A DNA stretch of 64,000 nucleotides from a virus: IMG/VR virus record IMGVR_UViG_3300042564_002819, positions 266,025 through 330,024 of that record; one strand, written 5' to 3'. The notes below the pieces were generated by a model. The model was not told where the DNA came from. It ran no database searches and was given only the letters and a program-made list of their open reading frames with translations. Within the stretch, counting starts at the first letter, position 1. Each line of letters starts with the position of its first letter. A program made the position numbers and the translations under genes. Positions 9,927-43,773 of the stretch are shown here, piece by piece.

Positions 9927-11966
9927 ATGAAAAAATTACTGTTATCGCCTGTTTGGAGCATTTTAGTATTAGTATTGTTGGCTTGGCTACAGTTTGCTAA
10001 TCCTAGTTTTTTAGAAAGTCTACAGCTACGTTACTTTGACCAACTTATAGTAAATCAAGAACCTGTAGCTAACAACGTTTACACAGTAAACATAGACGAA
10101 GCAAGTTTAAAGGCAAACGGACAATGGCCGTGGCCAAGAGGCGAATACGCCAAACTCATCGAAGAACTATATGCACGTGGTGCAGGATTAGTTGTGTTCA
10201 ACGTTCTAATGAGTGAAACAGATCGTGCAGGACAAGATGGCGTATTATCTACCACAATGAGCAACTATCCTGTTATAGTTACAATGTTGGGTACAGAGGA
10301 AAACAAAAATGAACCAATCAATCCTGGTGCTAGTATTATTAATAGCGACTACATCGATCTTATTCCTTCCGTGCCTGGCATCACAGCAAACGTGTCAGAT
10401 ATTGAACGTGCGGCTGTTGGATCAGGAATTGTTAACACTTTTCCAGAAATAGACGGTGTTACAAGACGTGCTCCACTAATACTAGAAAGCGGTGGAATAC
10501 TGTATCCTAACGTTACTATGGAAGTGCTTCGTGTTCTTGCCGGCGATCCAAGTTTCCAAATTAAACTGTCACCAATTGGTATAGACAAACTTCGTATTCC
10601 ACAGTATGGTGTATTACAAACAGATGAAATCGGCAGAGTTTGGTTAGATTGGAGTCAAAATTTTTCCAGTTACAGTGCTGCTGAGTTGCCCGATGATTTT
10701 GCAGGCGGTATAGTTTTTGTAGGACCAACAGCAGCCGGCATTACACAACCAATTGCAACAGCCGCAGGCGGTATTTGGCCGCATGAACTACAAGCTATAA
10801 TGCTAGGTACAGTGTTTAATCAAAGCAATATAAAACGTCCAGCATGGGCAACAGGTGCTGAATTGCTAGGATTTGTAATTTCTGGCATAGCTTTAATAAT
10901 AGCAGCACGTTGGACCTATGCGGGCATAGGAATATTTTTAATACTAGTTGGAACATCAATCGGTGGCAGCATCTATATGTTCTCTGCTTATAACTTCTTA
11001 CTAGACGGTTTTGTTCCGGCAGCATTCTTGTTGTTGGTAGGATTAGTAAGATATACTGTTAAGTTTGTAAGTGAGTTCTTACAAAAGCAAAAGATCAAAA
11101 AACAATTTGGTGGTTATGTGTCGCCTAAGATTGTTGATTTACTGGCTAAAGATCCGAGTGTAATAGAACGTGGAGTAAAGAAAAACATCTCTATTACTAT
11201 GACTGATCTGCGTGGCTTTACTCCTCTTGGAGAAAGTTACGGTGCTGATGTTGAAGGATTGCGTCAAATCATGAATGACTACATGGAAGCAATTACACAG
11301 CCAGTATTACGCAACGAAGGCACTATTATCAAATATATCGGTGATGCAAGTTTACATATAAACGGTGCACCATTTGATCAAGATAATCATGAATGTGTTG
11401 CGGTAAAAACTGCAATTGAAATGATAGATGCTGTAGAGGTGTTTAATGAAGAACTTAAAGCAAAAGGTAAGCCACCCGTTGGCATGGGTGCTGGTATCAA
11501 TACTGGTCCTACAGTTATTGGTAATATTGGCAGTTATAAGCGTTATGGTTATGACGTTTTAGGTGATAGTGTAAGCACAGCCGCACGTCTTGAAGGACAA
11601 ACCAAGCCCTATGGTGTTTTATTAATACTAGGACCAAAAACTGCCGAAGTAGCACGTCATTTCTATCACGTTGTAGAATTAGATCTATTAGCAGTCAAAG
11701 GTAAAACCGAAGCACTTCCTATTTACACAGTAATTTGGAGAGAAACACCCAACACTGAGTTTTGGCATCATCATGAAACATTCTTATCAGAATACAGATT
11801 AGCAAATTGGAAATCAGCTCTGGAACAAATTCAGTGGTTAAAAATTAATGGTCCTGTCACACTAGTCAAGTACTACGAGATGATGGAAGAACGTATTGCT
11901 GATCTATCTAAGAAAAAAATACAGCCCGGAAAATGGGACGGAGTATTCAGAGCTACAAGTAAATAA
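9927..11966 (+). CDS. CHASE2-sensor class III adenylate/guanylate cyclase
   Basis: N-terminal TM, then periplasmic CHASE2-like segment (NGQWPWPR); three further TM helices; cyclase core ITMTDLRGFT, KYIGDASL, GINTGPTVIGNIGS, GYDVLGDSVSTAARLEG. Confidence 0.75.
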   Translation: MKKLLLSPVWSILVLVLLAWLQFANPSFLESLQLRYFDQLIVNQEPVANNVYTVNIDEASLKANGQWPWPRGEYAKLIEELYARGAGLVVFNVLMSETDRAGQDGVLSTTMSNYPVIVTMLGTEENKNEPINPGASIINSDYIDLIPSVPGITANVSDIERAAVGSGIVNTFPEIDGVTRRAPLILESGGILYPNVTMEVLRVLAGDPSFQIKLSPIGIDKLRIPQYGVLQTDEIGRVWLDWSQNFSSYSAAELPDDFAGGIVFVGPTAAGITQPIATAAGGIWPHELQAIMLGTVFNQSNIKRPAWATGAELLGFVISGIALIIAARWTYAGIGIFLILVGTSIGGSIYMFSAYNFLLDGFVPAAFLLLVGLVRYTVKFVSEFLQKQKIKKQFGGYVSPKIVDLLAKDPSVIERGVKKNISITMTDLRGFTPLGESYGADVEGLRQIMNDYMEAITQPVLRNEGTIIKYIGDASLHINGAPFDQDNHECVAVKTAIEMIDAVEVFNEELKAKGKPPVGMGAGINTGPTVIGNIGSYKRYGYDVLGDSVSTAARLEGQTKPYGVLLILGPKTAEVARHFYHVVELDLLAVKGKTEALPIYTVIWRETPNTEFWHHHETFLSEYRLANWKSALEQIQWLKINGPVTLVKYYEMMEERIADLSKKKIQPGKWDGVFRATSK

Positions 11967-13035: not shown

Positions 13036-13066
13036 TTGACAAAATGCTTAAATATACTACTATATT
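13036..13066 (+). promoter_or_regulatory. sigma70-like promoter
   Basis: TTGACA at 13036, TACTAT/TATATT -10 candidates, AAGGAGA RBS, ATG at 13081. Confidence 0.5.
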
Positions 13067-13080
13067 ACAAAGGAGACTGC

Positions 13081-14214
13081 ATGAACAATTTTATAGAAGA
13101 TTTTATTAAAAAAAATACATTTCACAGACCGACTTTAGTGTTAGATATAAATGAAGTGGAAAAAAACTTCTATAATCTTAAACGTGGGATGCCCGATGCT
13201 CACATACACTATGCTGTTAAAAGCAATCCGCATCCTGAAATACTAAAATGCTTAGTGCAACAAGGTTGCAAGTTTGATGCAGCATCGATGGGAGAAATAG
13301 ATGCTTGTTTAGAAGCAGGTGCAAAGCCCGAACATATCAGTTTTGGCAATACTGTAAAGCGTTGGCAAGACATCAAATATGCACACTCTATAGGTATTGA
13401 CCTTTTTGCAGCAGATGCAAGTGAAGAACTTGAAAAGATTGCAAATTACGCACCTAACTCTCGCGTGTTTATTCGTGTATTGATTGGGCAAACTGAAGCA
13501 GAATGGCCGTTATCACGAAAGTTTGGTTGCGATCCCCAAATGGTTCTTGAGCTAATGGGATATGCTACAGACCTAGGTCTTAAGCCAGTTGGTATTAGTT
13601 GGCACATTGGTTCACAAACAAAACATCCTGAAATGTGGTTCGACACACTAGAAATGATGGCTAACCTTTGGGATGAAGCCTGCGGTTTTGGATACGATTT
13701 ATCGTTGGTAAACATCGGCGGCGGATTTCCTGCATACTACGGTGTTGATATAACTCCGCCAGAAGAATACGGTAGAAAATTAATGGATCGTGTTCGTAAG
13801 CAATTTCCAGGTGCAGACTACATTATGGTCGAACCGGGTCGCGGATTAGTAGGCAGTGCTGGTGCTATTGCTGCTGAAGTGTTATTGGTTAGCAAGAAGT
13901 CATCCTACGAAACAGTGCGTTGGGTTTATTTAAACATAGGAAGATTTAGTGGATTGGCTGAAACCGAAGGCGAAGCTATTAAATATCAATTTTCTATACC
14001 AGGTAAAGAAAACTCTACTACAGGACCATGTATTCTTGCAGGTCCTACTTGCGATAGTGCAGATGTACTATATGAAAAGAACAAGGTTCATTTGCCAGTT
14101 GACCTTTGCAGTGGCGATCGATTTATTATACGAAACTGCGGGGCTTACACCAGCACCTACAGCACTATTGCGTTTAACGGGTTTCCGCCGTTAGCTGTTG
14201 TAGTTTGCAAATGA
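13081..14214 (+). CDS. PLP-dependent ornithine/arginine/DAP decarboxylase (alanine-racemase fold, group IV)
   Basis: HYAVKSNPHPEILKCLVQQGCKFDAASMGEI (PLP lysine region), GGGFP, EPGR, C-terminal CGAYT motif. Confidence 0.8.
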   Translation: MNNFIEDFIKKNTFHRPTLVLDINEVEKNFYNLKRGMPDAHIHYAVKSNPHPEILKCLVQQGCKFDAASMGEIDACLEAGAKPEHISFGNTVKRWQDIKYAHSIGIDLFAADASEELEKIANYAPNSRVFIRVLIGQTEAEWPLSRKFGCDPQMVLELMGYATDLGLKPVGISWHIGSQTKHPEMWFDTLEMMANLWDEACGFGYDLSLVNIGGGFPAYYGVDITPPEEYGRKLMDRVRKQFPGADYIMVEPGRGLVGSAGAIAAEVLLVSKKSSYETVRWVYLNIGRFSGLAETEGEAIKYQFSIPGKENSTTGPCILAGPTCDSADVLYEKNKVHLPVDLCSGDRFIIRNCGAYTSTYSTIAFNGFPPLAVVVCK

Positions 14215-25192: not shown

Positions 25193-25705
25193 ATGAGGGT
25201 ATTACTAATAATAACGCTATTATTATCTCTTTCTGCTTGTGCTGATTTTAAGAAAATTCTTCGACCCGAACCTACACCAGAACCGATAAAAACAGCAATA
25301 GAAAAAGTAGGTTGGAACGAGCATCAAGACCGCAGAGAAATAAGAGAATTTACTGGTGTAGATCCAGTAAGTACACAATGGTGTGCTGCGTTTGTAAACG
25401 CAGTTCTTGAAGAAAATGGGTTACCTGGATCGGAGTTCTATAACGAAAATCCACTGTTAGCAAGAAGTTTTCTGTCCTGGGGTGTAGAGGTAGAAGAGCC
25501 CGAATACGGCGATATTGTAGTATTTGCTCGAGGCAATGAAGCTTGGAAGGGTCATGTTGGGTTTTATGTAACTTCGACATATTTAGAAGGTCAAAAACAC
25601 TACTTAGTTCTTGGCGGAAATCAAAACAACAGTGTCACATACAAAGCATATCCTACTCGTAGACTGCTTTCTGTAAGACGACTTACAACAGAAGATACTG
25701 AATAA
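25193..25705 (+). CDS. lipoprotein, CHAP/NlpC-P60-like (TIGR02594-type) putative peptidoglycan hydrolase
   Basis: lipobox LSAC; conserved Cys (TQWCAAFVNAV) and His (WKGHVGFYV) spaced as in Cys-His amidases. Confidence 0.5.
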   Translation: MRVLLIITLLLSLSACADFKKILRPEPTPEPIKTAIEKVGWNEHQDRREIREFTGVDPVSTQWCAAFVNAVLEENGLPGSEFYNENPLLARSFLSWGVEVEEPEYGDIVVFARGNEAWKGHVGFYVTSTYLEGQKHYLVLGGNQNNSVTYKAYPTRRLLSVRRLTTEDTE

Positions 25706-26600: not shown

Positions 26601-26773
26601 CAACACCCTTAGCAGATCAGAAGATATTCTCACTCAATGATCTCATTGAAATGGGTCTTATTACACGTAAACAGTTAGAAGATCACATCCGATACATGGA
26701 AGCAAAACAGTTAGTAAAAGAACTGTTTCCAGGAATGTTTTAAAAATAAAGAATAGGTAGCCGCGACTACCTT

Positions 26774-26905
26774 GGCTAGGAGACTATTTGCATTGTGCAT
26801 CGTGGGGCCTTTGTGTAGTAGACTGTTTCGTCTAACGGAGAGGACGCCGGTGGAGATCCGGAGATACAGGTTCGAGTCCTGTAGCAGTTTTGCTCCTAGC
26901 CAAAA
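26774..26905 (+). ncRNA. tRNA-like element with 9-bp terminal stem and canonical T arm (about 130 nt)
   Basis: GGCTAGGAG...CTCCTAGCC closing stem; ACAGG-TTCGAGT-CCTGT T arm; extra hairpin AGCA-GTTT-TGCT; too long for a tRNA. Confidence 0.3.
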
Positions 26906-26912
26906 TAATTTA

Positions 26913-26988
26913 GCCTTCGTAGCTCAACTGGAAGAGCAAGGGATTTCTACTCCCTAGGTTGTGGGTTCGACTCCTGCCGGGGGCACCA
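26913..26988 (+). tRNA. tRNA-Arg(TCT)
   Basis: anticodon stem AGGGA/TCCCT, loop TTTCTAC; acceptor GCCTTCG/CGGGGGC with two G-U pairs. Confidence 0.7.
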
Positions 26989-26997
26989 AAAAAGCTG

Positions 26998-27026
26998 TTG
27001 ACACAGACTTGGCACTATGCTACAAC
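26998..27026 (+). promoter_or_regulatory. island promoter unit 1
   Basis: GTTGACA ... TATGCT/TACAAC, GAGGAA RBS. Confidence 0.45.
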
Positions 27027-27058
27027 AAGTTATTGAATAACACATGAGGAACACTGAG

Positions 27059-27448
27059 ATGAAGACTGCTTACAAGAACCGTGACGGCGAATGGGTTGTG
27101 GCCGAGCAGATCAAGATGAGCCGGTATGACCTTGAAGGTTCGGTAGATTCGATTAAGGCTGCACTGGACGAGGTTCGCGACCGTGCTACCGCAATGGGTA
27201 TGGTGGGTGAAGGCACTGTTGACATCAGCCTGAACCGCGGCTTCTACTCGGACGACTACGAAATAGAAGTGGAATACTCCTTCACTCGGTATGAATACCC
27301 TGTGGAGATGGAGCGGCGTTTGGAGCGTGAGGCCAAGGATAAGGCTGCGGCTGCTGCCAAGCGTAAGGAAGCCGCCCAGAAGCGGAAACTCAAGAACGAT
27401 CCTGAGTATGTGGAGTTTGAACGGCTCCGGGCCAAGTTTGGTGGTTGA
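27059..27448 (+). CDS. hypothetical protein (GC-rich island gene 1)
   Basis: about 50% GC versus about 38% background; own promoter and RBS; Lys/Ala/Glu-rich C-terminus. Confidence 0.5.
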   Translation: MKTAYKNRDGEWVVAEQIKMSRYDLEGSVDSIKAALDEVRDRATAMGMVGEGTVDISLNRGFYSDDYEIEVEYSFTRYEYPVEMERRLEREAKDKAAAAAKRKEAAQKRKLKNDPEYVEFERLRAKFGG

Positions 27449-27504
27449 CAACACTCTCCTGCTGTGCTATAACAACAGCATAGGGCAACACGAGGAGAAA
27501 TCAA
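27445..27504 (+). promoter_or_regulatory. island promoter unit 2 with conserved leader
   Basis: GTTGACA-N17-TATAAC then CATAGGGCAACACGAGGAG leader. Confidence 0.55.
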
Positions 27505-27852
27505 ATGCCTTGTAGAGTCAACGACGAAGACTGGAAACCGCGTAAAGAAACCCGCCACGGGATGGATATCGAATCTTTCGAAGCTACACTTTGCGGCGTC
27601 TTCACTGCTGCAGAGGAAGGCGCCTTTGCGCCTACGGTTGTTGGCGGAGTTGATGGCTTGCTGGATGTGATCGACTGGAAAGAAGCCGGAGTGAAACGCA
27701 AGACCGTTGAAGCATGGTGGAAGCGGCATAAGGCAGAAGATGCTGCCCGCCTTGCTCGCGAATCTGCTGAACGGCGTAAGGCTGAACTCAAGCGGATTGC
27801 GATCGGCAAACTCACTGCAGAAGAACTGGAAGTGTTGGGGATCAAACTCTAA
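27505..27852 (+). CDS. hypothetical protein (island gene 2)
   Basis: 115-aa ORF, GC-rich, own promoter and SD. Confidence 0.5.
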   Translation: MPCRVNDEDWKPRKETRHGMDIESFEATLCGVFTAAEEGAFAPTVVGGVDGLLDVIDWKEAGVKRKTVEAWWKRHKAEDAARLARESAERRKAELKRIAIGKLTAEELEVLGIKL

Positions 27853-27862
27853 CACTTTCTGG

Positions 27863-27923
27863 TTGACATCCTACCTACACCGTGCTATGTATATTGTATA
27901 GGGCAACAAGAGGACAACCACAG
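27863..27923 (+). promoter_or_regulatory. island promoter unit 3 with conserved leader
   Basis: GTTGACA-N17-TATGTA then TATAGGGCAACAAGAGGA leader. Confidence 0.55.
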
Positions 27924-28175
27924 ATGCCGAATCCTGCTACTGCTCCCCGTGACGAATTGAACGAGTTTACTCGCTCTGTATGGCTGCTTGGTAACAGCAA
28001 CTGGGGTAATCACGGTGTACGTCTTCGGAACGGGTTGATTGTCAAACCGATCTACAAGCCCGCAGAAGACGAGACCAGTGAAGATGCATTCTTCACCGAA
28101 GACTATGAATACTGCTGGAACCTGGACGGCACTTCGGTAACCCGCAGGGACTTTGATATGATGGAGATCGTGTGA
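27924..28175 (+). CDS. hypothetical protein (island gene 3)
   Basis: 83-aa ORF from the ATG 8 nt after the GAGGA box. Confidence 0.45.
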   Translation: MPNPATAPRDELNEFTRSVWLLGNSNWGNHGVRLRNGLIVKPIYKPAEDETSEDAFFTEDYEYCWNLDGTSVTRRDFDMMEIV

Positions 28176-28176
28176 T

Positions 28177-28584
28177 ATGATCAGAGACCTATTCGTTCCT
28201 GTGGCTGAACTGCTGTTCTGGTTCACCGGCGGAGAACTACTGCTGAATACCTGGTGGTTCTTTGTGTGGGTTGTTGGTGGTGCGTTCCTTGTAACCTTGC
28301 CGCTGTGGTTAGGTATGCGTCTGGCCAGACGTGGTAGTAACCTCAAGTGGATACCTGGCACACTCTTCCTAGTCGGCTTCTTCCCTGCCTTACTGCTGAT
28401 CACCAGCCCAGGCATCATCCAAGCCGACTTGATGGAAGAATGCCTACCCGTCCAGACCGTAACAGTGGATACCGCACAGGTCAAAGGTATTGAAGTTCGA
28501 GTTCGCCAGTGTCGCTTCAAGGCCAACTACTATGACAAAAATTATGGTGAATGGCAAGCCTGGGCGGTTGACCGGCACCAATAA
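28177..28584 (+). CDS. membrane protein (island gene 4), about 4 TM segments
   Basis: translationally coupled to gene 3; hydrophobic N-terminal half. Confidence 0.45.
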   Translation: MIRDLFVPVAELLFWFTGGELLLNTWWFFVWVVGGAFLVTLPLWLGMRLARRGSNLKWIPGTLFLVGFFPALLLITSPGIIQADLMEECLPVQTVTVDTAQVKGIEVRVRQCRFKANYYDKNYGEWQAWAVDRHQ

Positions 28585-28869
28585 CTGTATTATAAGCTGC
28601 ATAAGGAGAGACCGGCAACTTGTGTAGTGCATGTAGTGACGACTTGCGGATAACAGGTGGGATCGTGACATGTTGTAAATCTTTATGTAAGGGGTCGACA
28701 CTTTATATAGAGAGAACGCTGCATACGCTGTGGGACCTCGGCGTATCATTAAGGTGATCAAATCACGCAGGGGTAAAAGCCCTAATGAGGGGTCCTAGGA
28801 ATTAAAGGAAATACTGTGAGATATAGAAAGTTTTACGACGACTTCTAGGCTATAACCTAGGAGAATCAA

Positions 28870-32179: not shown

Positions 32180-32568
32180 CATCTAAACTTTATATTGTTA
32201 TGCGGCGTGATCTGTGGGATATGAACCCAGGCAAGGCTATGGCACAGGCTGCTCATGCTCAAGCAGACTTTGACCTGTATATGTTTGCTGATCCTAAAGC
32301 TGCAAAAAGCAAAGAAATTGCAGATGCTGTAATAGCATGGCGTGAAGATAGGCATTTTGGCACTACGCTAGTGCTGCACGAACCAGTGGATACATTTGAC
32401 AAGATTTCAATGAATGTAGCACATTGGGGCTACGTTACTGATCCTACATATCCGTACCGTAACTATTACGGTGAAGTGTTTCTTCGTAGCGAAGTTACCT
32501 GTATGTGGGTATTTGCCTACACTGAAGCAGAACTAAAATATATGAGTCAATTTGATCTTCACCGTTGA
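32176..32568 (+). CDS. PTH2-family peptidyl-tRNA hydrolase-like
   Basis: KLYIVMRRDLWDMNPGKAMAQAAHAQAD parallels the PTH2 motif [24 protein letters not shown]. Confidence 0.5.
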   Translation: MTSKLYIVMRRDLWDMNPGKAMAQAAHAQADFDLYMFADPKAAKSKEIADAVIAWREDRHFGTTLVLHEPVDTFDKISMNVAHWGYVTDPTYPYRNYYGEVFLRSEVTCMWVFAYTEAELKYMSQFDLHR

Positions 32569-32625: not shown

Positions 32626-34764
32626 ATGATTATTAATTCAACTCCGGACAATATTGCAACTCTTGGCAACATTGATCAAGTCAGCGAATTTAAAATTCGC
32701 AACAGTGCAAAGGCATTTGGCATTCTTTCGAGTGGGCTTTATGCAAACAAAATTCGAGCAATCATTCGAGAACTAAGCTGCAATGCTGTTGATAGCCATG
32801 TTGCAGCTGGCATTCCTGATATTACTTTTGACGTGCATCTTCCTACTCCGCTTCGTCCGTACTTTTCTATTCGCGACTACGGAACCGGTTTGAGCCACGA
32901 TCAAGTCCTCAATATCTACACCACTTACTTCGAAAGCACCAAAACTAACAGCAACGACTTTATCGGTGCATTGGGTCTTGGATCAAAAAGTCCTTTTAGC
33001 TATACTGACAATTTTACTGTCATTGCAATTAAAGATGGCAAAAAAGGTGTTTACAGTGCATTTATCAACGACAACGGTGTTCCTGCTGTTGCTGTGATGG
33101 GCCAAGGAGATACCGAAGAACCTGCTGGTGTTGAAGTTAAATTTGCAGTTACTGACAGCGACGACTTTCACAAGTTTAAGTACGAAGCAGAACAAGTTTA
33201 TCGTTATTTTGCACTTAAGCCTAATTTTACTGGTGCAGAAGTTAAACTTACTGCCGTTGAGTACTCTGTTGAAAACGTTATTAATAATGTTCATCAACGT
33301 GCAGATGTTGACTATCGTAGCGGTCGTACAAATCGTGCAATTATGGGCAATATTGAGTATCCTATCGAGCTTCCACGTAAAAATACAGAACTCGGAGAAC
33401 TAAGCCACATTGATAACAATAGTCTTGATCTGTTTTTTGAAATCGGTGATTTGGATTTCCAAGCAAGCCGCGAAGGGTTGCAGTATACTGAAAAGACTAT
33501 TGCATCTATTTTGGCAAAATATCGCGAAATTTCAGATGTTCTTGCAGAAAAGTTTGCCAAGGAAACCGCAGGCATTAAAAATAAATGGGAACTTGCAAGG
33601 TTTGTAGTCAATCAATGCAATAGCCAATTGTGGTCTACTGCTGCAAGACAGTATGTTAGCAAACATAAAGTTCCGTTTGTTCACTGCTATTCACACGGTC
33701 ACGCATATCTAACTGCTGCCGATGTATCAATCAAGGTCATCGAAGAACAGTTCAATATTTCTGTACGAGCTTTCACAGTCGACGACGGATACAGCGTAGA
33801 TCGTACTTCTAGTGAAGTTAAGCCTAGCTATAGTCAGACTTTCTCAGTTTGCCCAAGCCAAAACATGAAATTTGTAAAAAACCCTGAGAATAAAAAAATC
33901 TGGGAACAAAGTAAGTATCACTTCAAGACGCAGACTGAGGGTAAACATCTTGTGTGGGTATTGTATGCCAAGGATCCTGCTAAGCCTGTGCTGTTTGACA
34001 AGTTTTTTAAGTTCATTTACGATCCTCCCGAAAACAGTATTTTTGAAGTAGAGAATCTTGTTAAGAAAGAAGTTAAACAACGGCAAAAACAAAACAGAAA
34101 GATTTCTACTCTGCGTCTTGCTTATCGTCAAAGTAGTTATAAGGACGAGTGTGTTTGGGAGCCTTATGTTCTCGATCAGACCCAACAACAGACTGAAACC
34201 AACTATTATGTTCCGATCAAAGGTTACCAGGCGTTTGACCGTAATAATCAACCTATTGACATCAAGCAGTATTATATGCAACTGATGAAAAGTAAGAAAA
34301 AGGAATTTCACAAGCTTCGAGTGTTTGGTGTTCGCCAGGACGACATTCCTGTTGTCGAAAGCCAAAGTAATTGGATTTTGCTGGATGACTTTCTTGCAGT
34401 TGAACTTGGACGGGTTACTAAAGAAGATTTCTTTGGAATGATTGTTGCTTCGGTTGACAAGAATAATTCAAGAATGTATACTTCAGAAAGGATCATGAAA
34501 AACTTAGATCCTAGCAGTCCGTTTGTACTGTTTGGTTCTAAGGCAACTACGGCAGAAAATAACACACTTCATTATCTTGCTGACTTGTGTAAAATTTATG
34601 CACCTGCGGTAGACGTAGAAAATCTTAAAAATGAGGCAAAAGCTGAAATGGAAAAGATTCAAACACGCTATCCTATGTTAAAACTTCTCCGCAACGGTTA
34701 TTACGACGACCCGGCTGTGGTAGAATATATCCAATTCGTCGATCAACACAAAGGATTGAACTAA
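32626..34764 (+). CDS. rIIA: rIIA-like protein (GHKL ATPase fold)
   Basis: 712 aa; N box IRELSCNAVDSH, G1 IRDYGTGLSHD, G2 GALGLGSKSPF; size and position next to rIIB. Confidence 0.75.
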   Translation: MIINSTPDNIATLGNIDQVSEFKIRNSAKAFGILSSGLYANKIRAIIRELSCNAVDSHVAAGIPDITFDVHLPTPLRPYFSIRDYGTGLSHDQVLNIYTTYFESTKTNSNDFIGALGLGSKSPFSYTDNFTVIAIKDGKKGVYSAFINDNGVPAVAVMGQGDTEEPAGVEVKFAVTDSDDFHKFKYEAEQVYRYFALKPNFTGAEVKLTAVEYSVENVINNVHQRADVDYRSGRTNRAIMGNIEYPIELPRKNTELGELSHIDNNSLDLFFEIGDLDFQASREGLQYTEKTIASILAKYREISDVLAEKFAKETAGIKNKWELARFVVNQCNSQLWSTAARQYVSKHKVPFVHCYSHGHAYLTAADVSIKVIEEQFNISVRAFTVDDGYSVDRTSSEVKPSYSQTFSVCPSQNMKFVKNPENKKIWEQSKYHFKTQTEGKHLVWVLYAKDPAKPVLFDKFFKFIYDPPENSIFEVENLVKKEVKQRQKQNRKISTLRLAYRQSSYKDECVWEPYVLDQTQQQTETNYYVPIKGYQAFDRNNQPIDIKQYYMQLMKSKKKEFHKLRVFGVRQDDIPVVESQSNWILLDDFLAVELGRVTKEDFFGMIVASVDKNNSRMYTSERIMKNLDPSSPFVLFGSKATTAENNTLHYLADLCKIYAPAVDVENLKNEAKAEMEKIQTRYPMLKLLRNGYYDDPAVVEYIQFVDQHKGLN

Positions 34765-35594
34765 TGTTTCCGTATATGATTCAAGGCAATAACATTGTTG
34801 TAGTTATCGGTACTCAACCGCATACTATCAACAAAACCCATGTTGCATACGAAAAGGTCAAAAACGCTATTCGTAATAACGACTGGGATACCGTAAAGAA
34901 AATTATCGACCCTGAGAAGGTTGTTCTCGATTATGGCAGCGGTCGTGTTGCTGTGCAAGGAGACAAGCTGTTCTGGGACGGTGTTGAAATGCACAACGCT
35001 CTGTCACGCCGCATGATTCAAATGCTGCAAGAAGACTTCCCGATTGAGCCGCTGGTTAAGTTTATGGAAAACCTCCACGAAAACCCGAGCTTCCGTGCAG
35101 TTAACGAACTGTATGGCTTCCTTGAAAAGAACAGCCTGCCGATTACTCCGGACGGTCACTTCCTTGCTTACAAGAAGGTGCGTGACGACTTTATGGACGT
35201 ACACTCGGGCACTGTGTCTAACAAGCCTGCTTATGCGTTTACGGACGAAGAAAAAGCTGCTATGCCGTTAACTTCGGGTAAGAAAAAAGAAGTTTCTGTT
35301 GCACTCGAAAATGGTGTAACTGTTATCTCGATGCCGCGTAACATGGTCAATGACGATAAGAATCAGACTTGCAGCGAAGGTTTGCACTTCTGCTCTAAAG
35401 AGTACTTGGGTCACTTCGGTGGTGAACGAATCGTGATCCTTAAAATTAACCCGCGTGATGTTGTTAGTATTCCTTCGGATTACAACAACAGCAAGGGTCG
35501 TGCTTGCCGTTACGAGATTGCTGGCGAACTTGGCGTTGATCCTGATACTGCATTTACTGCTGCTGTACAGGAAAATGCTAACACAGAAGCATAA
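34764..35594 (+). CDS. rIIB: rIIB-like protein
   Basis: C-terminal block QTCSEGLHFCSKEYLGHFGGERIVILKINPRDVVSIPSDYNNSKGRACRYEI closely parallels T4 rIIB (QTCSRGLHVCS...HPRDVVSIP.DYND). Confidence 0.75.
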   Translation: MFPYMIQGNNIVVVIGTQPHTINKTHVAYEKVKNAIRNNDWDTVKKIIDPEKVVLDYGSGRVAVQGDKLFWDGVEMHNALSRRMIQMLQEDFPIEPLVKFMENLHENPSFRAVNELYGFLEKNSLPITPDGHFLAYKKVRDDFMDVHSGTVSNKPAYAFTDEEKAAMPLTSGKKKEVSVALENGVTVISMPRNMVNDDKNQTCSEGLHFCSKEYLGHFGGERIVILKINPRDVVSIPSDYNNSKGRACRYEIAGELGVDPDTAFTAAVQENANTEA

Positions 35595-37329: not shown

Positions 37330-40300
37330 ATGAGATTAAGAAACCTTTTTGAAGTACAAGTGCAACCAGGTGAACGCAGAGGATTTTCGCTGCGGTTGAA
37401 GCGTCTTGAAGATTTGCAAGTAAAAATTGCAGAAATACAAAATACTATAAGCGAACTTGGTAATGTTAGCGTTCCAGAAAACTTAAAAAAACAAATGGAA
37501 GATCTTATCGATGCTGCTAAAATAGAAAAAGAAAAAATCTATGCAGAAGTATCTGACGCAGAAGTAAAAAATCCAAGAATTCAAGGAATACCTGGATCTG
37601 TCATGAAGTTACTTAGAGGCATAGAAAAAAATGCTTCAACTATAATGAACGCATACAGAAAAACTGGAAAATATCTCTATAGAGGAATCAAATCTTCCGA
37701 AGACGCACTTTATGGAAAACCTTTTGACATCAGAAAAGCCAAGGATAGTAATGTAGATTTAAGTAATGCATTAAATCAATCCTTAGCAGACCAAGGATTT
37801 AATGCTAGAAGAGACAACACTACTTTTACTTCTGGTTCTTATAATCAGGCTAGTAATTACGGTACTGTGTATATAATATTTCCTAGAGATGGGTTCTCAT
37901 TCCATTACAGTAAAAAGATAAGAGACCTTGTTTTAGATACCGGCAAGATTGATATGTTACTGGATCCCGAAATAACAGGTTATATCGAAAGTGCTATACG
38001 TTCTAACTGGAGCAATCTCAAAAACTATTTTTCTTATAAATTTAGTGGAGATAAATTCTTTACAGGTTATGAATATCAAAAAGATTTAGATGGGTTACAA
38101 CGTGCAGTAGCAGACGGTGTGCTTCCACAAGAATTTGCAAAATATAAGACTTTTTATGATCTAGTTGATCCTGCAAAAGTTATAGCTAATTTTCAATACA
38201 ATCAAACTGATCTCGACAGTGCTATAACTTCCGAACATGAAGTCATGATTACAGGACCGTATTATGCTGTTAAAACAGAGTCCTTTCAAGATTATATTGA
38301 CAAATATATTAAAATGACAGCAAATGGTGAATTTGATGTCACTCCAGATAACAAAAAAGAAAAAACTACTTTAAATCAAAAAATACAATCTATAGTAGGC
38401 GGTTCCGCGCCTGAGTTTGCAATAGGAGATTGGGTGCAGCATAAGTACGAAGGATTTAAAGGTGAAGTTGTTGACTATTACCATACCAATGACTTTGTTC
38501 AAATTAAAGATTATGCCGGAAAACTAAAATTAGTCAATAAGAAAAATATTGATAAAATTAAAACTCCTGAGATGCCCGACTACCAGCCCGGCGATAAAGT
38601 TTATCTAAGAACAAAAGACACAGAATGGGAATATTATAATAATAAAAAATACAAGGTAGTAGACTCTGATAAGTTTACCGTAACAGTTCAAAAAGGCAGT
38701 TACGACACCACAATTACATTACCTAAATTGTTAACCGAACCTGCTCCTAAATTTGATACCAAAGATCCAAGTGTAGGAGACACAGTTCATGTTACCAAGG
38801 GCGATTTTGAAAACATGTACGGAACTATTACATATGTTTCTAGTTACAGTAAAGATATTGATGTTGACTTCGGAGACAGCGATTCGCACACTGTTCAAAA
38901 AGGATCTTACGAAGTTATTGATCCTGCAACAAAACCTGCAGATGCAAACTCTATTGCATCAAAGTTTAAAGAAGGTGATTACGTTAGAATCTCTGACGAC
39001 GGGTTTGATTACAGTGGTCTTGTAGCGGTAATTAATAAACCTGGTTTATCAAAATCAAGAGTATATCCGTTCGGCGAAAAAAGTTATGCTTTAAGTATAA
39101 AAAATTCTAGATTAAAAGCTATTGATGAAGATGAATTTAAAAAACAATCGTTTAGCATAACAGATCAAGTAGTTGTATCTGGCGGCAAGCATGATGGAAA
39201 GAGTGGAAAACTTAATTATGTAAGCTTTGATGGAACTATGGAAATAGTTGTCAGTAGTGGTAACACCATAGAAGTACCCGGAAAATATGTTTTTAATCAA
39301 AACGTAAATGGTTCTCCTGAAAATAACGAGAATAAAGAAACAATTAAAAAAGGTGATTTTGTAAAAATCTCAGACGACTCGGACTTGTTCCCAGGTTCTG
39401 TAGCAAAAGTAGTTGTAAAGAATTCCGGCGAAAAATCTACAATATTAGTAAACAACGACAACAATCTCGATTATATTATTGATACAAAATATCTAACCAA
39501 GATTGATGAAAATGAATTTAACAATAAAAAGCTGTCAACCGGCGACGAAGTCAATGTCACAGACGGATATTATAAAGGAAAAACTGGAAAAATAAAATCG
39601 TTTGGGACTGATGGTCCTGTAAGAGTTGATATAACTTCGCCGTCCACAGGGGATACATTTACAATTAAGGTACTTCCACAATACTTGGAAAAAATAAATC
39701 AAAGCAGTGACGACTTAATTGATTTAATGGATCTTGAGTTTGAACCGATGGACGAGCCTACTGATTTTAAAAATAATGAAACTAAAAAATTTAAAGTCGG
39801 CGACAGCGTAAAAGTAATTAATGGTAAACACAAAGGAAAAACTGGAAAAATAAATTACCTATATACGTATACAAAAGAAGCGTATGTTGACTTCGACGGT
39901 GAATATCACGACATTGAGTTAAAAGACTTAGAGTTAGACAAAGAAGAATCAAAAACTGATAGCAATTTTAACAAAGACGAATTAAAAAAGCTAATCAGTC
40001 AAGGAAAAGAAAAAGGTTTTATAACCTATAATCAACTAAACGATGTAGTGCCTTCGGACAAAGTTACTTCTGAAGAAATTGAAGATATAATGGATATGTT
40101 AAATGAATTAGGAATCAATTTAGTTGATGCTGAAAAAGACTCGGCTCCATCAGGTGAAACTCCACAGGAATTACAAGCAAGAATAAACGATCCAGATACA
40201 AAAGCGTTCCTTAAACAAGCATTTGCAGATCCTGATGTAAAAGAACTAGTGAGTAATATAATCAAAAAGAAAATTATAACAACCGACGACATTGATAATA

Positions 40301-40389
40301 TATCTGTTCTAGTAGGATATGACAAGTATTTGTTTGGCATAAAACCATATATCGAACTTAAAGGCGTTGTATACCAACCTACTACTTGA
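37330..40389 (+). CDS. multidomain protein: Alt-like ADP-ribosyltransferase candidate, about 8 KOW-like repeats, C-terminal sigma70 region 1.1-like domain
   Basis: ART R-S-E candidates YLYRGIK / TFTSGSY / SEHEVMITG; repeats GDxVxVxxGxxKGKxG (e.g. GDEVNVTDGYYKGKTGKI, GDSVKVINGKHKGKTGKI); C-terminus ELKKLISQGKEKGFITYNQLNDVVPSDKVTSEEIEDIMDMLNELGINLVD versus E. coli RpoD QLKLLVTRGKEQGYLTYAEVNDHLPEDIVDSDQIEDIIQMINDMGIQVME. Confidence 0.55.
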   Translation: MRLRNLFEVQVQPGERRGFSLRLKRLEDLQVKIAEIQNTISELGNVSVPENLKKQMEDLIDAAKIEKEKIYAEVSDAEVKNPRIQGIPGSVMKLLRGIEKNASTIMNAYRKTGKYLYRGIKSSEDALYGKPFDIRKAKDSNVDLSNALNQSLADQGFNARRDNTTFTSGSYNQASNYGTVYIIFPRDGFSFHYSKKIRDLVLDTGKIDMLLDPEITGYIESAIRSNWSNLKNYFSYKFSGDKFFTGYEYQKDLDGLQRAVADGVLPQEFAKYKTFYDLVDPAKVIANFQYNQTDLDSAITSEHEVMITGPYYAVKTESFQDYIDKYIKMTANGEFDVTPDNKKEKTTLNQKIQSIVGGSAPEFAIGDWVQHKYEGFKGEVVDYYHTNDFVQIKDYAGKLKLVNKKNIDKIKTPEMPDYQPGDKVYLRTKDTEWEYYNNKKYKVVDSDKFTVTVQKGSYDTTITLPKLLTEPAPKFDTKDPSVGDTVHVTKGDFENMYGTITYVSSYSKDIDVDFGDSDSHTVQKGSYEVIDPATKPADANSIASKFKEGDYVRISDDGFDYSGLVAVINKPGLSKSRVYPFGEKSYALSIKNSRLKAIDEDEFKKQSFSITDQVVVSGGKHDGKSGKLNYVSFDGTMEIVVSSGNTIEVPGKYVFNQNVNGSPENNENKETIKKGDFVKISDDSDLFPGSVAKVVVKNSGEKSTILVNNDNNLDYIIDTKYLTKIDENEFNNKKLSTGDEVNVTDGYYKGKTGKIKSFGTDGPVRVDITSPSTGDTFTIKVLPQYLEKINQSSDDLIDLMDLEFEPMDEPTDFKNNETKKFKVGDSVKVINGKHKGKTGKINYLYTYTKEAYVDFDGEYHDIELKDLELDKEESKTDSNFNKDELKKLISQGKEKGFITYNQLNDVVPSDKVTSEEIEDIMDMLNELGINLVDAEKDSAPSGETPQELQARINDPDTKAFLKQAFADPDVKELVSNIIKKKIITTDDIDNISVLVGYDKYLFGIKPYIELKGVVYQPTT

Positions 40390-41316: not shown

Positions 41317-41797
41317 AGTAGTAGTTTTCTTAGACCTCGACGGTCCTATCATTGATCTTAAAACTTACAAGACCAACCCGATTGTGTCTTATTATAGAAC
41401 TGGTGGAAATTCAAAGGCTATCGAAAATCTTGTAAAGTTGTGCGACGAGTTTGGTCTTGAAATCGTCACTAATTCTATGCACAACTATTACCAGTTAGGA
41501 GATGATACTCTTCAGGACGATTTAGTATCCTGGGGTATTCCTGTAGATCTTTTTCACAGTGACTGGAGAACTATTTTTCCTAAAGTTAATTACAAGGAAA
41601 TAAAAAGCACTGTTCGGGGAATTGGTAGACTTTACGCTATTGAACAATGGATCAAAGAACATCCTGGGTATAACTGGATTTGTTTTGATGATCGAAAGTT
41701 TACAGAAGATCCGAGACTGATACATATTTCTAGAGAAAACGGAATCGACCAAGGATATTACGAGCAGGCAAGAAAAATTCTAAAAACACTTGCTTGA
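41276..41797 (+). CDS. HAD-superfamily phosphatase (paralog 3)
   Basis: motif I VVFLDLDGPI; ends CFDDRKF. Confidence 0.5.
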   Translation: MNTSETLQSNFPNKVVVFLDLDGPIIDLKTYKTNPIVSYYRTGGNSKAIENLVKLCDEFGLEIVTNSMHNYYQLGDDTLQDDLVSWGIPVDLFHSDWRTIFPKVNYKEIKSTVRGIGRLYAIEQWIKEHPGYNWICFDDRKFTEDPRLIHISRENGIDQGYYEQARKILKTLA

Positions 41798-41843: not shown

Positions 41844-42377
41844 ATGAGCGAACCCGTCTGCACTGTAATGGTTGGCTTGCCTGCTATGGGCAAGTCCACT
41901 CTTGTTAAAGGCATGTGGAAAGATGAAAGCACTTTCATCTACAGCACTGACGATCTTCTTGAGGCCGCTGCTAAAGAACTTGGCAGCACTTACAATGAAG
42001 TGTTTGAAACGCTAATCAAGTCAGTTACTGAGGCAGCAAACGGATCTCTCGATGTTGCCGTCAAGAACCGTCAAGACATCATCTGGGATCAAACCAACTT
42101 GGGTGCAGGCAAGCGTCGTAAAATTATTAATCGTATGCGTCAGGCAGGTTATCAAGTTCGTTGTGTTTGTATCGTTCCTCCTGAAGCAGGACACATCAGT
42201 AATCTCAAGGACTGGAAGTATCGTTTGGCTAACCGCCCTGGTAAAACTATTCCAGATGAGGTGTTGACAAACATGTATCGTTCGTTTACACTGCCTACAG
42301 TAGAGGAAGGGTTTGATATGATTACCTTCTATAACATGCACGGTGCCCTGTTGGGTGTTGACTATGGAGAAGAATAA
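41844..42377 (+). CDS. P-loop polynucleotide kinase-like (Pnk kinase domain-like)
   Basis: Walker A VGLPAMGKSTLV, 177 aa, directly upstream of the RNA ligase. Confidence 0.5.
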   Translation: MSEPVCTVMVGLPAMGKSTLVKGMWKDESTFIYSTDDLLEAAAKELGSTYNEVFETLIKSVTEAANGSLDVAVKNRQDIIWDQTNLGAGKRRKIINRMRQAGYQVRCVCIVPPEAGHISNLKDWKYRLANRPGKTIPDEVLTNMYRSFTLPTVEEGFDMITFYNMHGALLGVDYGEE

Positions 42378-43534
42378 TGCACTACCGTTTTCCTGAGATC
42401 CGTCACATTAGTGATGTGCTTCCGCACATCGAAGGTCGTGAGGAATTTGTTGTAGCAGAGCGTGAAGGCTACACTGTGATCAACTACGTGGTTGCAATGG
42501 CCGACACCTTTGACATGACTGGAGCAGATGACTTGGGCGGTGCAATCCGTCGTGAATGTCGTGGCTTGATTTTTGACCGTGATGGTAACATCATGAGCCG
42601 TCCGTTTCACAAGTTCTTCAACATCAACGAGCGTGAAGAAACTCAAGCACATCGGTTGGATCTCAGTGTTTTGTTTGACCATGTGATCATGGAAAAGATG
42701 GATGGTTCGATGATCCGTCCTATCTTAGTCGATGGACACTTGCGTCTTGCTACCAAGATGGGTGTAACTGAAGTGGCCATGCAGGCCGAAACTTGGCTAG
42801 CTGCTCAGGACCCTATGTTGAAGAAGTGGATGGCTATCATGATGGCACAGGGTATTACTCCGATCTTCGAGTGGGTAAGCCCGTTCAATCAGATTGTGTT
42901 GGCGTATGAAACCGCTGATCTTGTGCTATTGGCACTGCGTAACAACATCACTGGCGAATACCTTGATGTCGGCGATCCAAAAGACGACAAACTGTGGACT
43001 GTGGTTCCGCAGTATGGTTCAGTAGAAGGCAACCTTGGTGACTATATTGCTCGTCAGCGTGGTGCAGAAGGTCGCGAAGGTGACATCATTCGCTTTGCGG
43101 ATGGGCATATGGTCAAGGTCAAGAACGACTGGTATGTGCGTATTCACAAGACTGTGGATCGCATCGTGTTCGACCGTAACATTGTTGCTCTTATCCTCAA
43201 CGAGGAAGTGGACGACGTGTTGCCGATGTTGCCGCAGGTTCAAGCAGATCGTGTTCGTGTATTCGAGCGTCGATTCGCCGAACGGCTTCACGCTGTGGTT
43301 GAAAACTACGAACGCTACTGGAACACTGTAGTAGCATCGGGTCTTGACCGCAAGCGTTATGCTCAAGAGTGGATGCCTACTATTAAGGGCAACGATCCGT
43401 TTGCTACTAACTACGTGTTTGGTCGCTTTGCTGGTCGAGATGGTCGTCAAATGATTCTTGATCATATCGAAAAGAGCATCACTACCAACGTTCGTTGGGA
43501 TGAATGTGCAGCGTGGATGGGGATGGGTCCGTGA
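42377..43534 (+). CDS. rnlA: RNA ligase 1
   Basis: ECRGLIFDRDGN..RPFHKFFNINE..MEKMDGSMI (KxDG nucleotidyl-transferase lysine) and DGHMVKVKNDWYVRIHKT parallel T4 Rnl1 ECRGIMFEMDGE..KEDGSLV..DGSHFKIKSDWYVSLHST. Confidence 0.8.
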   Translation: MHYRFPEIRHISDVLPHIEGREEFVVAEREGYTVINYVVAMADTFDMTGADDLGGAIRRECRGLIFDRDGNIMSRPFHKFFNINEREETQAHRLDLSVLFDHVIMEKMDGSMIRPILVDGHLRLATKMGVTEVAMQAETWLAAQDPMLKKWMAIMMAQGITPIFEWVSPFNQIVLAYETADLVLLALRNNITGEYLDVGDPKDDKLWTVVPQYGSVEGNLGDYIARQRGAEGREGDIIRFADGHMVKVKNDWYVRIHKTVDRIVFDRNIVALILNEEVDDVLPMLPQVQADRVRVFERRFAERLHAVVENYERYWNTVVASGLDRKRYAQEWMPTIKGNDPFATNYVFGRFAGRDGRQMILDHIEKSITTNVRWDECAAWMGMGP

Positions 43535-43773
43535 CCGATCCCCTCTTTTCTATCTGTAAACGTCTTCCTACAGACTACAGTGATTATGGCGGAGAGATCA
43601 AGCGTTGGGACTACGAAGGCGTAGACTATCCTGACTGTAGTTGTGGTTGTCGCTGGTTTTTGCCACTTGAAGGCGACTTAGGTTCTGACTGGGGTGTTTG
43701 CAGTAAATTAGATGGCCCAAGAGCAGGATTGCTAACTTTTGAACATCAAGCAGGAAAGGGCTGCTTTGAATAA
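43504..43773 (+). CDS. small Cys-rich protein
   Basis: CSCGC...C cluster. Confidence 0.3.
   Translation: MCSVDGDGSVTDPLFSICKRLPTDYSDYGGEIKRWDYEGVDYPDCSCGCRWFLPLEGDLGSDWGVCSKLDGPRAGLLTFEHQAGKGCFE

Follow-up and report, generated by a model that had tools for sequence, protein, structure and literature searches.

Four small genes in a GC-rich island of an uncultured jumbo phage probably form a short PeSL-type array of early-gene cassettes that came from a related phage

We analysed a window of 64,000 nucleotides (nt) of viral DNA, positions 266,025–330,024 of record IMGVR_UViG_3300042564_002819, and within it a GC-rich island at 26995–28600 (coordinates are those of the whole window throughout) that holds four small genes, o1 to o4. 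We conclude, at a probability of about 0.7, that the phage, an uncultured jumbo member of the T4 superfamily, carries in this island a short PeSL-type array of early-gene cassettes within a hyperplastic region, and that it acquired the array from a related phage. PeSLs are defined by a strong σ70-like early promoter with an AT-rich stretch upstream, a stem-loop that mostly lies between the promoter boxes or over the −10 box, and a Shine-Dalgarno sequence (SD) and ATG on the 3′ side (PMC2839356, PMC4122927). They repeat ahead of orphan genes in the hyperplastic regions of T4-type phages and serve there as promoters, terminators and recombination sites that swap the genes they flank, including as mini-circles (PMC2839356, PMC4122927); in phages RB49 and phi1 the promoter activity, the terminator activity and the mini-circles have been demonstrated experimentally (Arbiol et al. 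2010, PMC2839356). By sequence comparison, the family to which the cassettes of the island belong fits this definition in its promoter, its family-level stem-loop, its SD and ATG, its location and the variable small genes behind it.

The island starts about 9 nt downstream of a tRNA-Arg(TCT) gene, directly behind which it had been placed by a preliminary description of this DNA. The regulatory units are as follows.

26913..26988, plus strand: tRNA-Arg(TCT), left anchor of a variable hot spot, found by ARAGORN and Rfam
26998..27058, plus strand: unit 1, a diverged cassette with the promoter kept and the ATAGGGCAACA leader absent
27445..27504, plus strand: unit 2, a canonical cassette that matches the family consensus
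27863..27923, plus strand: unit 3, a canonical cassette with an AT-rich stretch just upstream
28568..28620, plus strand: unit 4, a degenerate cassette that overlaps the end of o4, from a three-way alignment with intact cassettes of the related contigs L029 and L030

Common to units 2 and 3 are TTGACA, a spacer of 17 nt containing TGn, a −10 box and the leader ATAGGGCAACA(C/A)GAGGA. In unit 2 the −35 box lies at 27445–27450, the TG-extended −10 box TATAAC at 27468–27473 and the leader ATAGGGCAACACGAGGA, which ends in the SD, at 27480–27496; the corresponding elements of unit 3 are at 27863–27868, 27886–27891 (TATGTA, also TG-extended) and 27898–27914 (ATAGGGCAACAAGAGGA). The composite pattern TTGACA ... 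TA ... ATAGGGCAACA has two matches, at 27445 and 27863, against 0.00 expected. Unit 1 consists of a −35 box TTGACA (26998–27003), a 17-nt spacer ending in TG, a −10 box TACAAC (27021–27026) and an SD GAGGAA (27046–27051), and its leader region reads AATAACACATGAGGA in place of ATAGGGCAACA. Unit 4 retains TTGACC (28568–28573), a 17-nt spacer, TATAAG (28591–28596) and a leader remnant, GCATAAGGAGAG. GAGGA stands 8–9 nt ahead of the ATG in units 1–3, as it does across the cassette family. The 20 nt upstream of the −35 box are 70% AT in unit 3 and 35% AT in units 1, 2 and 4, which abut the tRNA or coding sequence. In the window as a whole a σ70-like promoter sequence pattern has seven matches, all on the plus strand, against 0.33 expected, and looser promoters of the same design occur elsewhere in the backbone, including one before rIIA at 32565. 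The preliminary description had taken the promoter-leader unit to be triplicated; units 2 and 3 do share a cassette, but unit 1 is without ATAGGGCAACA, the degenerate unit 4 had been overlooked, and on comparison with the family units 2 and 3 are canonical copies of an early-promoter cassette of the clade, not products of a local triplication.

This cassette is dispersed. The family consensus is an AT-rich stretch, GGTTGACA, N14, (G)TGCTATAAC or TGCTATWGTA, about 6 nt, ATAGGGCAACA(C), AAGAGGG or GAGGA, 5–9 nt and ATG, and we found more than 300 copies of it in contigs of uncultured aquatic jumbo T4-like phages, each ahead of a small gene. A 20-base family pattern that runs from the −35 box through the extended −10 box into the leader (TTGAC-N15-TGCTAT-N10-TAGGGCAAC) matched 18 stretches in IMG/VR and at least 120 in metagenomes. 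Bacterial and archaeal genomes, one per species and 185,579 in all, gave one chance-like match only to the cassette pattern; that match, L046, is a generic extended −10 promoter in a metagenome-assembled genome of Saccharibacteria and was rejected as a member of the family. The viral-contig loci together with the window supplied 65 distinct cassette copies, and the metagenome loci 271 copies, 246 of them distinct. Over the family the 20 nt upstream of the −35 box average 65% AT, against 53% for the loci. When the bare 17-mer leader was searched in IMG/VR it gave three matches, two of them by chance and the third in L010, where it is part of a full cassette; L010 has 19 promoters of the form TTGAC-N15-TGNTA within 10.9 kilobases (kb) on a single strand, each ahead of a small open reading frame (ORF), and after most of these promoters come ACACATAGGGCAACA, an SD and ATG. 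Looked for in related phages, the conserved leader that the preliminary description had noted in the window is therefore found again, in dispersed cassettes of both IMG/VR and the metagenomes. Several cassette-bearing contigs also have backbone genes of the window, for example ornithine decarboxylase (69%, in L019) and a homolog of the gene at 25193–25705 (in L013 and L023), which places the cassette in the same broad clade of phages.

Spacer and leader are reverse complements in many copies, for example in L019 (GCCCTACTCA ... TGAGTAGGGC), and the resulting stem of 10–12 base pairs (bp) holds the −10 box in its loop; in other copies the hairpin lies wholly within the spacer. The duplex of a leader with its own spacer averages −14.2 kcal/mol in the viral-contig set, compared with −10.9 for the spacers of other cassettes and −8.0 for shuffled spacers, and the independent metagenome set repeats the difference between own spacers and those of other cassettes (−14.9 vs −12.0, p = 5e-9). 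Helix columns 17–27 covary with columns 40–50 at 0.222, against 0.141 in column shuffles, none of 500 of which reached 0.222; slid registers gave at most 0.141, and double changes occur in 10 of the 11 helix pairs. While TAGGGCAA is at least 90% conserved over the 65 cassettes, the complementary spacer arm varies in sequence or register or is absent. In the window, unit 1 has a short 6-bp stem, GACTTG/CAAGTT, across the −10 box (own duplex −7.1 kcal/mol, shuffled spacer −3.3), and in unit 2 the spacer CCTGCTGT is complementary to ACAGCATAGG in an 8-bp stem with a bulge (−11.5 vs −7.7). The stem of unit 3 is weak and bulged (−6.2 vs −7.1). Folded as single sequences, units 1–3 have z-scores of +0.2, −1.6 and −0.2. 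Because the −10 hexamer lies at the usual distance in standard σ70 geometry, transcription is predicted to start at or beside the A of ATAGGG, and the leader would then be the 5′ end of each cassette mRNA.

From these elements a mechanism may be proposed. Each small gene or coupled pair comes with a near-consensus σ70 promoter with extended −10 box, the leader AUAGGGCAACA..., an SD and a start codon, and host RNA polymerase would transcribe every unit independently, right after infection. Standing ahead of hundreds of different small genes, the cassette of 50–60 bp would act as portable homology, which would let co-infecting relatives excise, insert and reshuffle genes together with their promoters. 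The four genes of the island would have come from a GC-richer cassette array like that on the 374-kb contig L030 and would have landed in the slot between tRNA-Arg(TCT) and a conserved small RNA, where they would have retained the composition of the donor pool.

The absence of the island from the closest relatives and the shuffled synteny of its genes bear on the transfer. By macro-domain protein the closest relatives are L007 (92% identical) and L001 (84%), and both are without the island. Common to the two is the order macro-domain gene, small ORF, tRNA-Arg(TCT) and a conserved 5′ region, ACAGAAAGTTTTACGACGACTT with a hairpin; the slot that separates the tRNA from the 5′ region holds a tRNA-like sequence in L001, and in L007 an RNA-like sequence and an AT-rich ORF of 88 amino acids (aa). 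In L005 tRNA-Arg(TCT) is followed by tRNA-Ser and a small RNA element. The array of L030 extends over more than 9 kb at about 50% GC with 13 cassettes, and there homologs of o1 (67%) and o2 (53%) are followed by a 100-aa gene, a 58-aa gene and a homolog of o4 (74%). In L029, o4 stands behind an unrelated coupled 66-aa gene, and in L030 too the upstream gene to which it is coupled is unrelated to o3. Both the 66-aa family of L029 and a family named YDFEYY recur in the AT-rich T4-like contigs L038–L040, next to homologs of o3 that lie upstream of RNA ligase 1; throughout L038–L042, o3 lies upstream of RnlA and is followed by genes other than o4, and neighbours of o3 there recur in L029 and L030. 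Three metagenome loci (L073, L101 and L102) carry one island gene each, homologs of o1, o3 and o4 each appear alone in the metagenome loci, and arrays of small unannotated genes are present in L010, L026, L029 and L030. A breakpoint falls inside a cassette: window positions 28150–28595 are 93% identical in DNA to L029, and this homology ends on the right at about 28595, between the −35 box of cassette 4 and its −10 box. The lone backbone gene common to the window and L029, by comparison, has 47% protein identity. No terminal inverted repeats of the kind that mark transposon-like ends were found at the island. An 11-nt direct repeat, GGCACCAA(A/T)AA, does flank it, at 26982–26992 in the 3′ end of tRNA-Arg and at 28574–28584 in the spacer of cassette 4; it could be a microhomology for integration, but is probably due to chance, since the cassette homology with L030 runs past the repeat.

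The four genes of the island are listed below.

27059..27448, plus strand: o1, a soluble protein of 129 aa (134 aa if the start is at 27044)
27505..27852, plus strand: o2, a soluble protein of 115 aa with a basic, helical C-terminal half
27924..28175, plus strand: o3, an acidic protein of 83 aa
28177..28584, plus strand: o4, a membrane protein of 135 aa, translationally coupled to o3

The sharp contrast in base composition and codon usage that had been noted by eye was confirmed by computation. The GC content of the block 26995–28600 is 51.6% and that of the remaining window 39.6%; windows of 1606 nt outside the block average 39.4% (standard deviation 3.2%) and reach 48.3% at most, and in a sliding profile three successive 500-nt windows covering 27001–28500 lie at 51.6–52.0%. 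GC content at third codon positions (GC3) is 0.51–0.63 in o1–o4, about 0.35 in the neighbouring genes and 0.34 on average in the 77 other plus-strand ORFs. The second GC-richest stretch, at 42051–43650 (48%), comprises RNA ligase 1 and the gene before it, with a promoter TTGACA ... TGTTAC at 41794. At least seven independent metagenome samples yielded an identical island in an identical context (six loci at 100% and one at 99.8%), and it is hence a stable part of the phage and not an assembly artefact.

The longest ORFs of the block, of 144, 199 and 213 aa, are on the minus strand, and were these the real genes the plus-strand ORFs would be artefacts. We consider this next to impossible. The minus-strand ORFs have no coding pattern over codon positions, whereas o1–o4 have a G-rich first and an A-rich second position, and they match no family in Pfam or PHROG. 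The plus-strand proteins have conserved full-length homologs, and gene callers run on identical metagenome contigs pick plus-strand ORFs of 129, 115, 83 and 135 aa. For o4 the ratio of nonsynonymous to synonymous substitution rates (dN/dS) in the plus frame is 0.29 against L029 and 0.15 against L030, which indicates purifying selection. All other long ORFs with a family match among those tested, and all 30 tRNA genes of the window, are likewise on the plus strand. The long antisense ORFs are thus spurious, as had been supposed, and the four plus-strand ORFs described earlier are real, with two corrections: o1 is more likely to start at 27059, 8 nt after the SD and also the choice of the gene callers on the identical contigs, which gives 129 and not 134 aa, and o4 does not have the four transmembrane segments ascribed to it.

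Why the island is GC-rich can be approached through its homologs. Copies of the o3 family and their neighbours in the AT-rich contigs L038 and L039 have a GC3 of 0.25–0.45, equal to background, so high GC is not intrinsic to these proteins; judged by these sequences, the island most likely inherited its composition from a GC-richer donor array. In 16 of 19 IMG/VR loci and in 25 of 30 metagenome loci (0.527 vs 0.442, p = 6e-6, with ORFs more than 1.5 kb from cassettes as the metagenome background), cassette genes also have a higher GC3 than the contig's other ORFs, in a comparison that drew on loci L012–L030 and L047–L126. A GC-rich cassette pool may circulate faster than it ameliorates, or early genes may be selected for host-like codons. 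The second option leads to an unlikely but serious alternative, by which immediate-early genes keep host-matched, GC3-rich codons on the rationale that they are translated before the phage's own tRNAs accumulate, and the island could be old and lost in the relatives. The GC3 excess in both sets of loci, its persistence over genome backbones of 36–50% GC and the 30 tRNA genes in the window alone are in keeping with such selection. However, homologous small early genes behind ordinary σ70 promoters in L038 and L039 stay at background GC3, and o4 has 93% DNA identity to L029 when the sole shared backbone gene has a protein identity of 47%. Quite improbable, in our view, is the reading of the island as a classical moron, that is, a recent foreign block from the host or an unrelated element whose promoter was triplicated locally and which encodes an exclusion, abortive-infection or anti-defence module. 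Such a moron would share the real contrast in GC and GC3, the promoters within the block, the absence from the closest relatives and the coupling of a small soluble protein to one in the membrane. Against this, the promoter-leader unit is a dispersed, clade-wide family that is absent from the 185,579 species genomes, the homologs of o1–o4 are all on phage-like contigs of the same clade, and no terminator was found on the plus strand of the island. Nor is the pairing of o3 with o4 conserved, and PADLOC, Pfam, PHROG and fold searches gave no match, so that the proposed defence-related role of the pair is not borne out. Of the earlier view that this is a recently acquired, independently transcribed accessory cassette, the accessory insertion, its own predicted σ70-type promoters and its absence from L007 and L001 stand, and the foreign origin does not: since phage-like contigs hold all the homologs and bacterial genomes are without the cassette, the source would be phages of the same clade and not a foreign organism. 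A PeSL-type array in a hyperplastic region fits better than a moron island.

The leader invites two further readings. It could primarily be an RNA operator, AUAGGGCAACA, for the joint shut-off of early cassette genes, recognised by a RegA-like translational repressor, a RegB-like nuclease or a small RNA, with any role in recombination incidental; this had been hinted at earlier and seems to us distinctly doubtful. The leader is more constant than its pairing arm, so it is constrained beyond pairing, and every transcript is predicted to begin with the leader, which lies 5–20 nt upstream of the SD. Yet the window yielded no candidate for a binding factor, conservation just past the −10 box could equally reflect promoter function (discriminator or initial transcribed sequence) or exchange homology, and units 1 and 4 are without the motif although o1 was kept intact. 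Just as doubtful is a wider scheme in which the cassettes would be a dedicated system of gene exchange and control, with AUAGGGCAACA read by a phage factor for shut-off or site-directed exchange, combined with a temporal partition of codons. If that partition were true, immediate-early proteins would be made from the host tRNA pool before the phage's tRNAs, at least 30, take over.

Several points weigh against a PeSL-type array of related-phage origin. Across the family, pairing occurs in only about 57% of helix cells, so the stem is not universal, and the stems of the window itself are weak, that of unit 3 being no better than shuffled and the single-sequence folds non-significant. No U-tract comes after the stem, and on the plus strand between 27000 and 28900 we found no terminator-like site, so nothing in the sequence visibly corresponds to the terminator or attenuator half of a PeSL. 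The homology with L029 starts on the left (about 28150) in the 3′ end of the upstream gene and not in a cassette, and the argument from discordance rests on one backbone gene. There may have been loss in L001 and L007 instead of gain in the lineage of the window, and the GC3 excess in most contigs could stem from selection and not from recent transfer. Membership of the T4 type is drawn from genes in the window, the T4 core structural and replication genes lying beyond it. Finally, the claims of promoter activity, early timing, recombination mechanism and direction of transfer are drawn from sequence alone.

The PeSLs of the pseudo-T-even coliphages RB49 and phi1 resemble the window family in their near-perfect σ70 promoter (TTGACA, 17 nt, a TATAAT-like box) with an upstream stretch that is AT-rich on the family average, stem-loop and SD/ATG, in repeating before small orphan genes of hyperplastic regions and, as it appears, in the motif-bounded insertions and deletions between relatives. 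Unlike them, the window family has another sequence without the polyG-loop-polyC stem, and the 3′ arm of its stem is the strongly conserved leader TAGGGCAAC, which is predicted to be transcribed. It occurs in uncultured aquatic contigs, some of them near-complete at 330–380 kb, that are far from RB49, and is known from sequence only. Its genes are GC3-richer than their genomes, and GC content goes unmentioned in PMC2839356. The PeSLs and PmSLs of the Vibrio phages nt-1 and KVP40 and of PST and T4 (Comeau et al. 2014) have their own sequence variant in each T4-like subgroup, with degraded "half" PeSLs beside insertions and deletions (PMC4122927). The degraded units 1 and 4 resemble such half elements, and there too the motifs cluster in regions rich in tRNA and orphan genes (PMC4122927); KVP40 also shares with the window NadV and NatV and about 30 tRNAs (PMC4122927). 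The promoters of these phages, however, deviate from σ70 (TTGYVH ... TAWWAT) and their stems lie upstream (A3-4G3-loop-C3T3-4; PMC4122927). The window cassettes have a near-consensus promoter, an extended −10 box and a stem that spans the −10 box.

Like the morons of lambdoid and HK97-like phages, the island is an extra block with its own promoter and deviant composition that is absent from close relatives. Those morons are typically flanked by a promoter and a terminator, lie in late operons of temperate phages and often encode fitness genes expressed from the prophage. In the island, by contrast, no terminator was found, the gene content around it is that of a lytic T4-like phage, the early promoters are the clade's own and the donor would be a related phage. 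Integron cassettes are small, mostly orphan and mostly promoterless genes that lie head to tail, are bounded by a short structured repeat and are drawn from a shared pool. The island likewise has arrayed small genes bounded by a short structured repeat and exchanged, as it appears, as units; unlike integron cassettes, each of its cassettes has its own promoter, no integrase or attC-like site was seen, and exchange is presumed to occur by general recombination on short homology.

So far PeSLs have been described in a few cultured T4-like phages, and the principle now extends to uncultured aquatic phages. The cassette is uniform and searchable, so it can mark early genes in unannotated giant phage genomes and delimit hyperplastic regions, and the family outlines a set of small, exchangeable proteins (the o1, o3 and o4 families among others) with a candidate role in host takeover or superinfection control. 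That cassette genes exceed their genomes in GC3 is a new and testable observation that may bear on why tRNA-rich phages carry tRNAs. The island itself would be ordinary phage biology and not a foreign element.

By analogy with the early accessory genes of T4, o1–o4 most likely act in host takeover or superinfection control. The homologs of o1, o3 and o4 are all unannotated metagenomic proteins, and searches of o1–o4 against Pfam and PHROG gave no family beyond faint PHROG matches of o2; there were no PADLOC matches at E ≤ 1. Alignment of o1 shows an alpha/beta region at the N terminus, a helix rich in Lys and Ala and, at the C terminus, the conserved motif EY.EF.RLKAKFG. The protein has 30 homologous clusters, and besides the copy in L030 (67% identical) there is one in L073 (60%). 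The o2 homolog of L030 (53% identical) comes right after that of o1. There are 22 homologs of o3, whose family sits upstream of RNA ligase 1 in T4-like contigs that are AT-rich; o3 is modelled as a small fold of helix plus beta. Residue 52 of o3 is Ser where nearly all of 19 aligned homologs have Cys (motif DETCED), and by this alignment Ser52 would remove one Cys of a possible conserved pair. Hydropathy gives o4, which has 23 homologs at 52–94% identity, two clear hydrophobic spans and one borderline N-terminal helix. Its AlphaFold model, made from a 22-sequence alignment at a predicted local distance difference test (pLDDT) score of 81, has three helices and then a four-stranded beta domain of about 45 aa with two invariant Cys; the model suggests a periplasmic disulfide domain. 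Foldseek comparison of the o4 model with the PDB and viral models gave nothing significant, PDB profile searches with o3 and o4 were empty and tblastn with o4 against isolated phages found none.

Downstream of the island lie sequences that belong to the phage backbone. The preliminary description had included a GC-rich, foldable non-coding tail. The tail (28585–28868), whose first part is the remainder of the degraded cassette 4, does fold better than shuffles (z = −3.2), but its GC content is 43.7%, slightly above background, and it is mostly outside the island. Its features, and the homologs of the first in other contigs, are as follows.

28678..28806, plus strand: structured-RNA candidate, backbone sequence and not island cargo
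L005/L044 8154–8281, L045 5160–5287 and L043 4276–4410: homologs of the RNA candidate
28815..28869, plus strand: conserved 5′ region of the next gene with ACAGAAAGTTTTACGACGACTT, hairpin and SD, right anchor of the hot spot

The foldability of the tail is mostly due to the RNA candidate of about 130 nt. Its homologs, 74–81% identical, lie within the tRNA clusters of three other phage lineages, and compensatory changes occur in 7 of its 37 predicted pairs. It has no Rfam family, the only Rfam matches in or near the island being tRNAs, and a scan of 37 sources with a covariance model of the tail RNA gave no further copies. The tRNA region of T4 encodes small stable RNAs, and the candidate may be analogous to these. 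A 45-aa ORF with a TTG start at 28620–28757 was rejected as a gene: it is not called by gene callers on the identical contigs, and it overlaps the conserved RNA element. From this arrangement the island appears to have been inserted between tRNA-Arg and the tail RNA, and cassette 4 may drive transcription of the latter. The region 28815–28869, which occurs once in the window, is common to L001 (9320–9375) and L007 (1968–2020), with compensatory changes in its hairpin. The gene behind it differs, with 68 aa in the window and about 190 aa in the relatives, and the ACAGAAAGTTTTACGACGACTT region could be a phage-specific promoter or an element of the 5′ untranslated region. At the left of the hot spot a 72-nt "tRNA-Leu(GAG)" at 26820–26891 sits inside a perfect 11-bp outer stem, TTGGCTAGGAG/CTCCTAGCCAA (26772–26903; fold z = −3.3), and at the same hot spot the relatives have tRNA-like sequences with long internal insertions (L001 9196–9300; L007 1558–1668). 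The tRNA-like sequences at the hot spot may be interrupted or unusual tRNAs.

By its gene content the window is a part, rich in tRNA and accessory genes, of an uncultured jumbo phage that we place in the T4 superfamily. It encodes rIIA (32626–34764, E = 3e-126) and rIIB (34764–35594, E = 7e-71), a T4-type RNA ligase 1 (RnlA), thymidine kinase (Tk), NAMPT (NadV), an NMNAT-Nudix protein (NatV-like) and a macro-domain protein. The closest rIIA proteins among isolated phages are those of T4-like myoviruses, at an identity of only 31–38%, and DNA searches of isolated phages with the island, its flanks and L010 gave only tRNA matches. Related contigs reach 330–382 kb, and a contig related to the window encodes a GP38 adhesin. 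The window also carries signalling and auxiliary metabolic genes, namely a CHASE2-sensor adenylate/guanylate cyclase (9927–11966), an ornithine/diaminopimelate/arginine decarboxylase, identified as ornithine decarboxylase (13036–14214), and an IMP dehydrogenase or GMP reductase (1166–2299). A 1019-aa protein (37330–40389) combines, unusually, KOW motifs of the Spt5/NusG type with a σ70 region 1.1 domain, which suggests a factor that would target host RNA polymerase, and it weakly resembles a protein of the Agrobacterium jumbo phage Atu_ph07. On a related phage contig of 100 kb, L045, ARAGORN finds a transfer-messenger RNA gene at 11048–11452, with the tag peptide ANENFAPKAFALAA.

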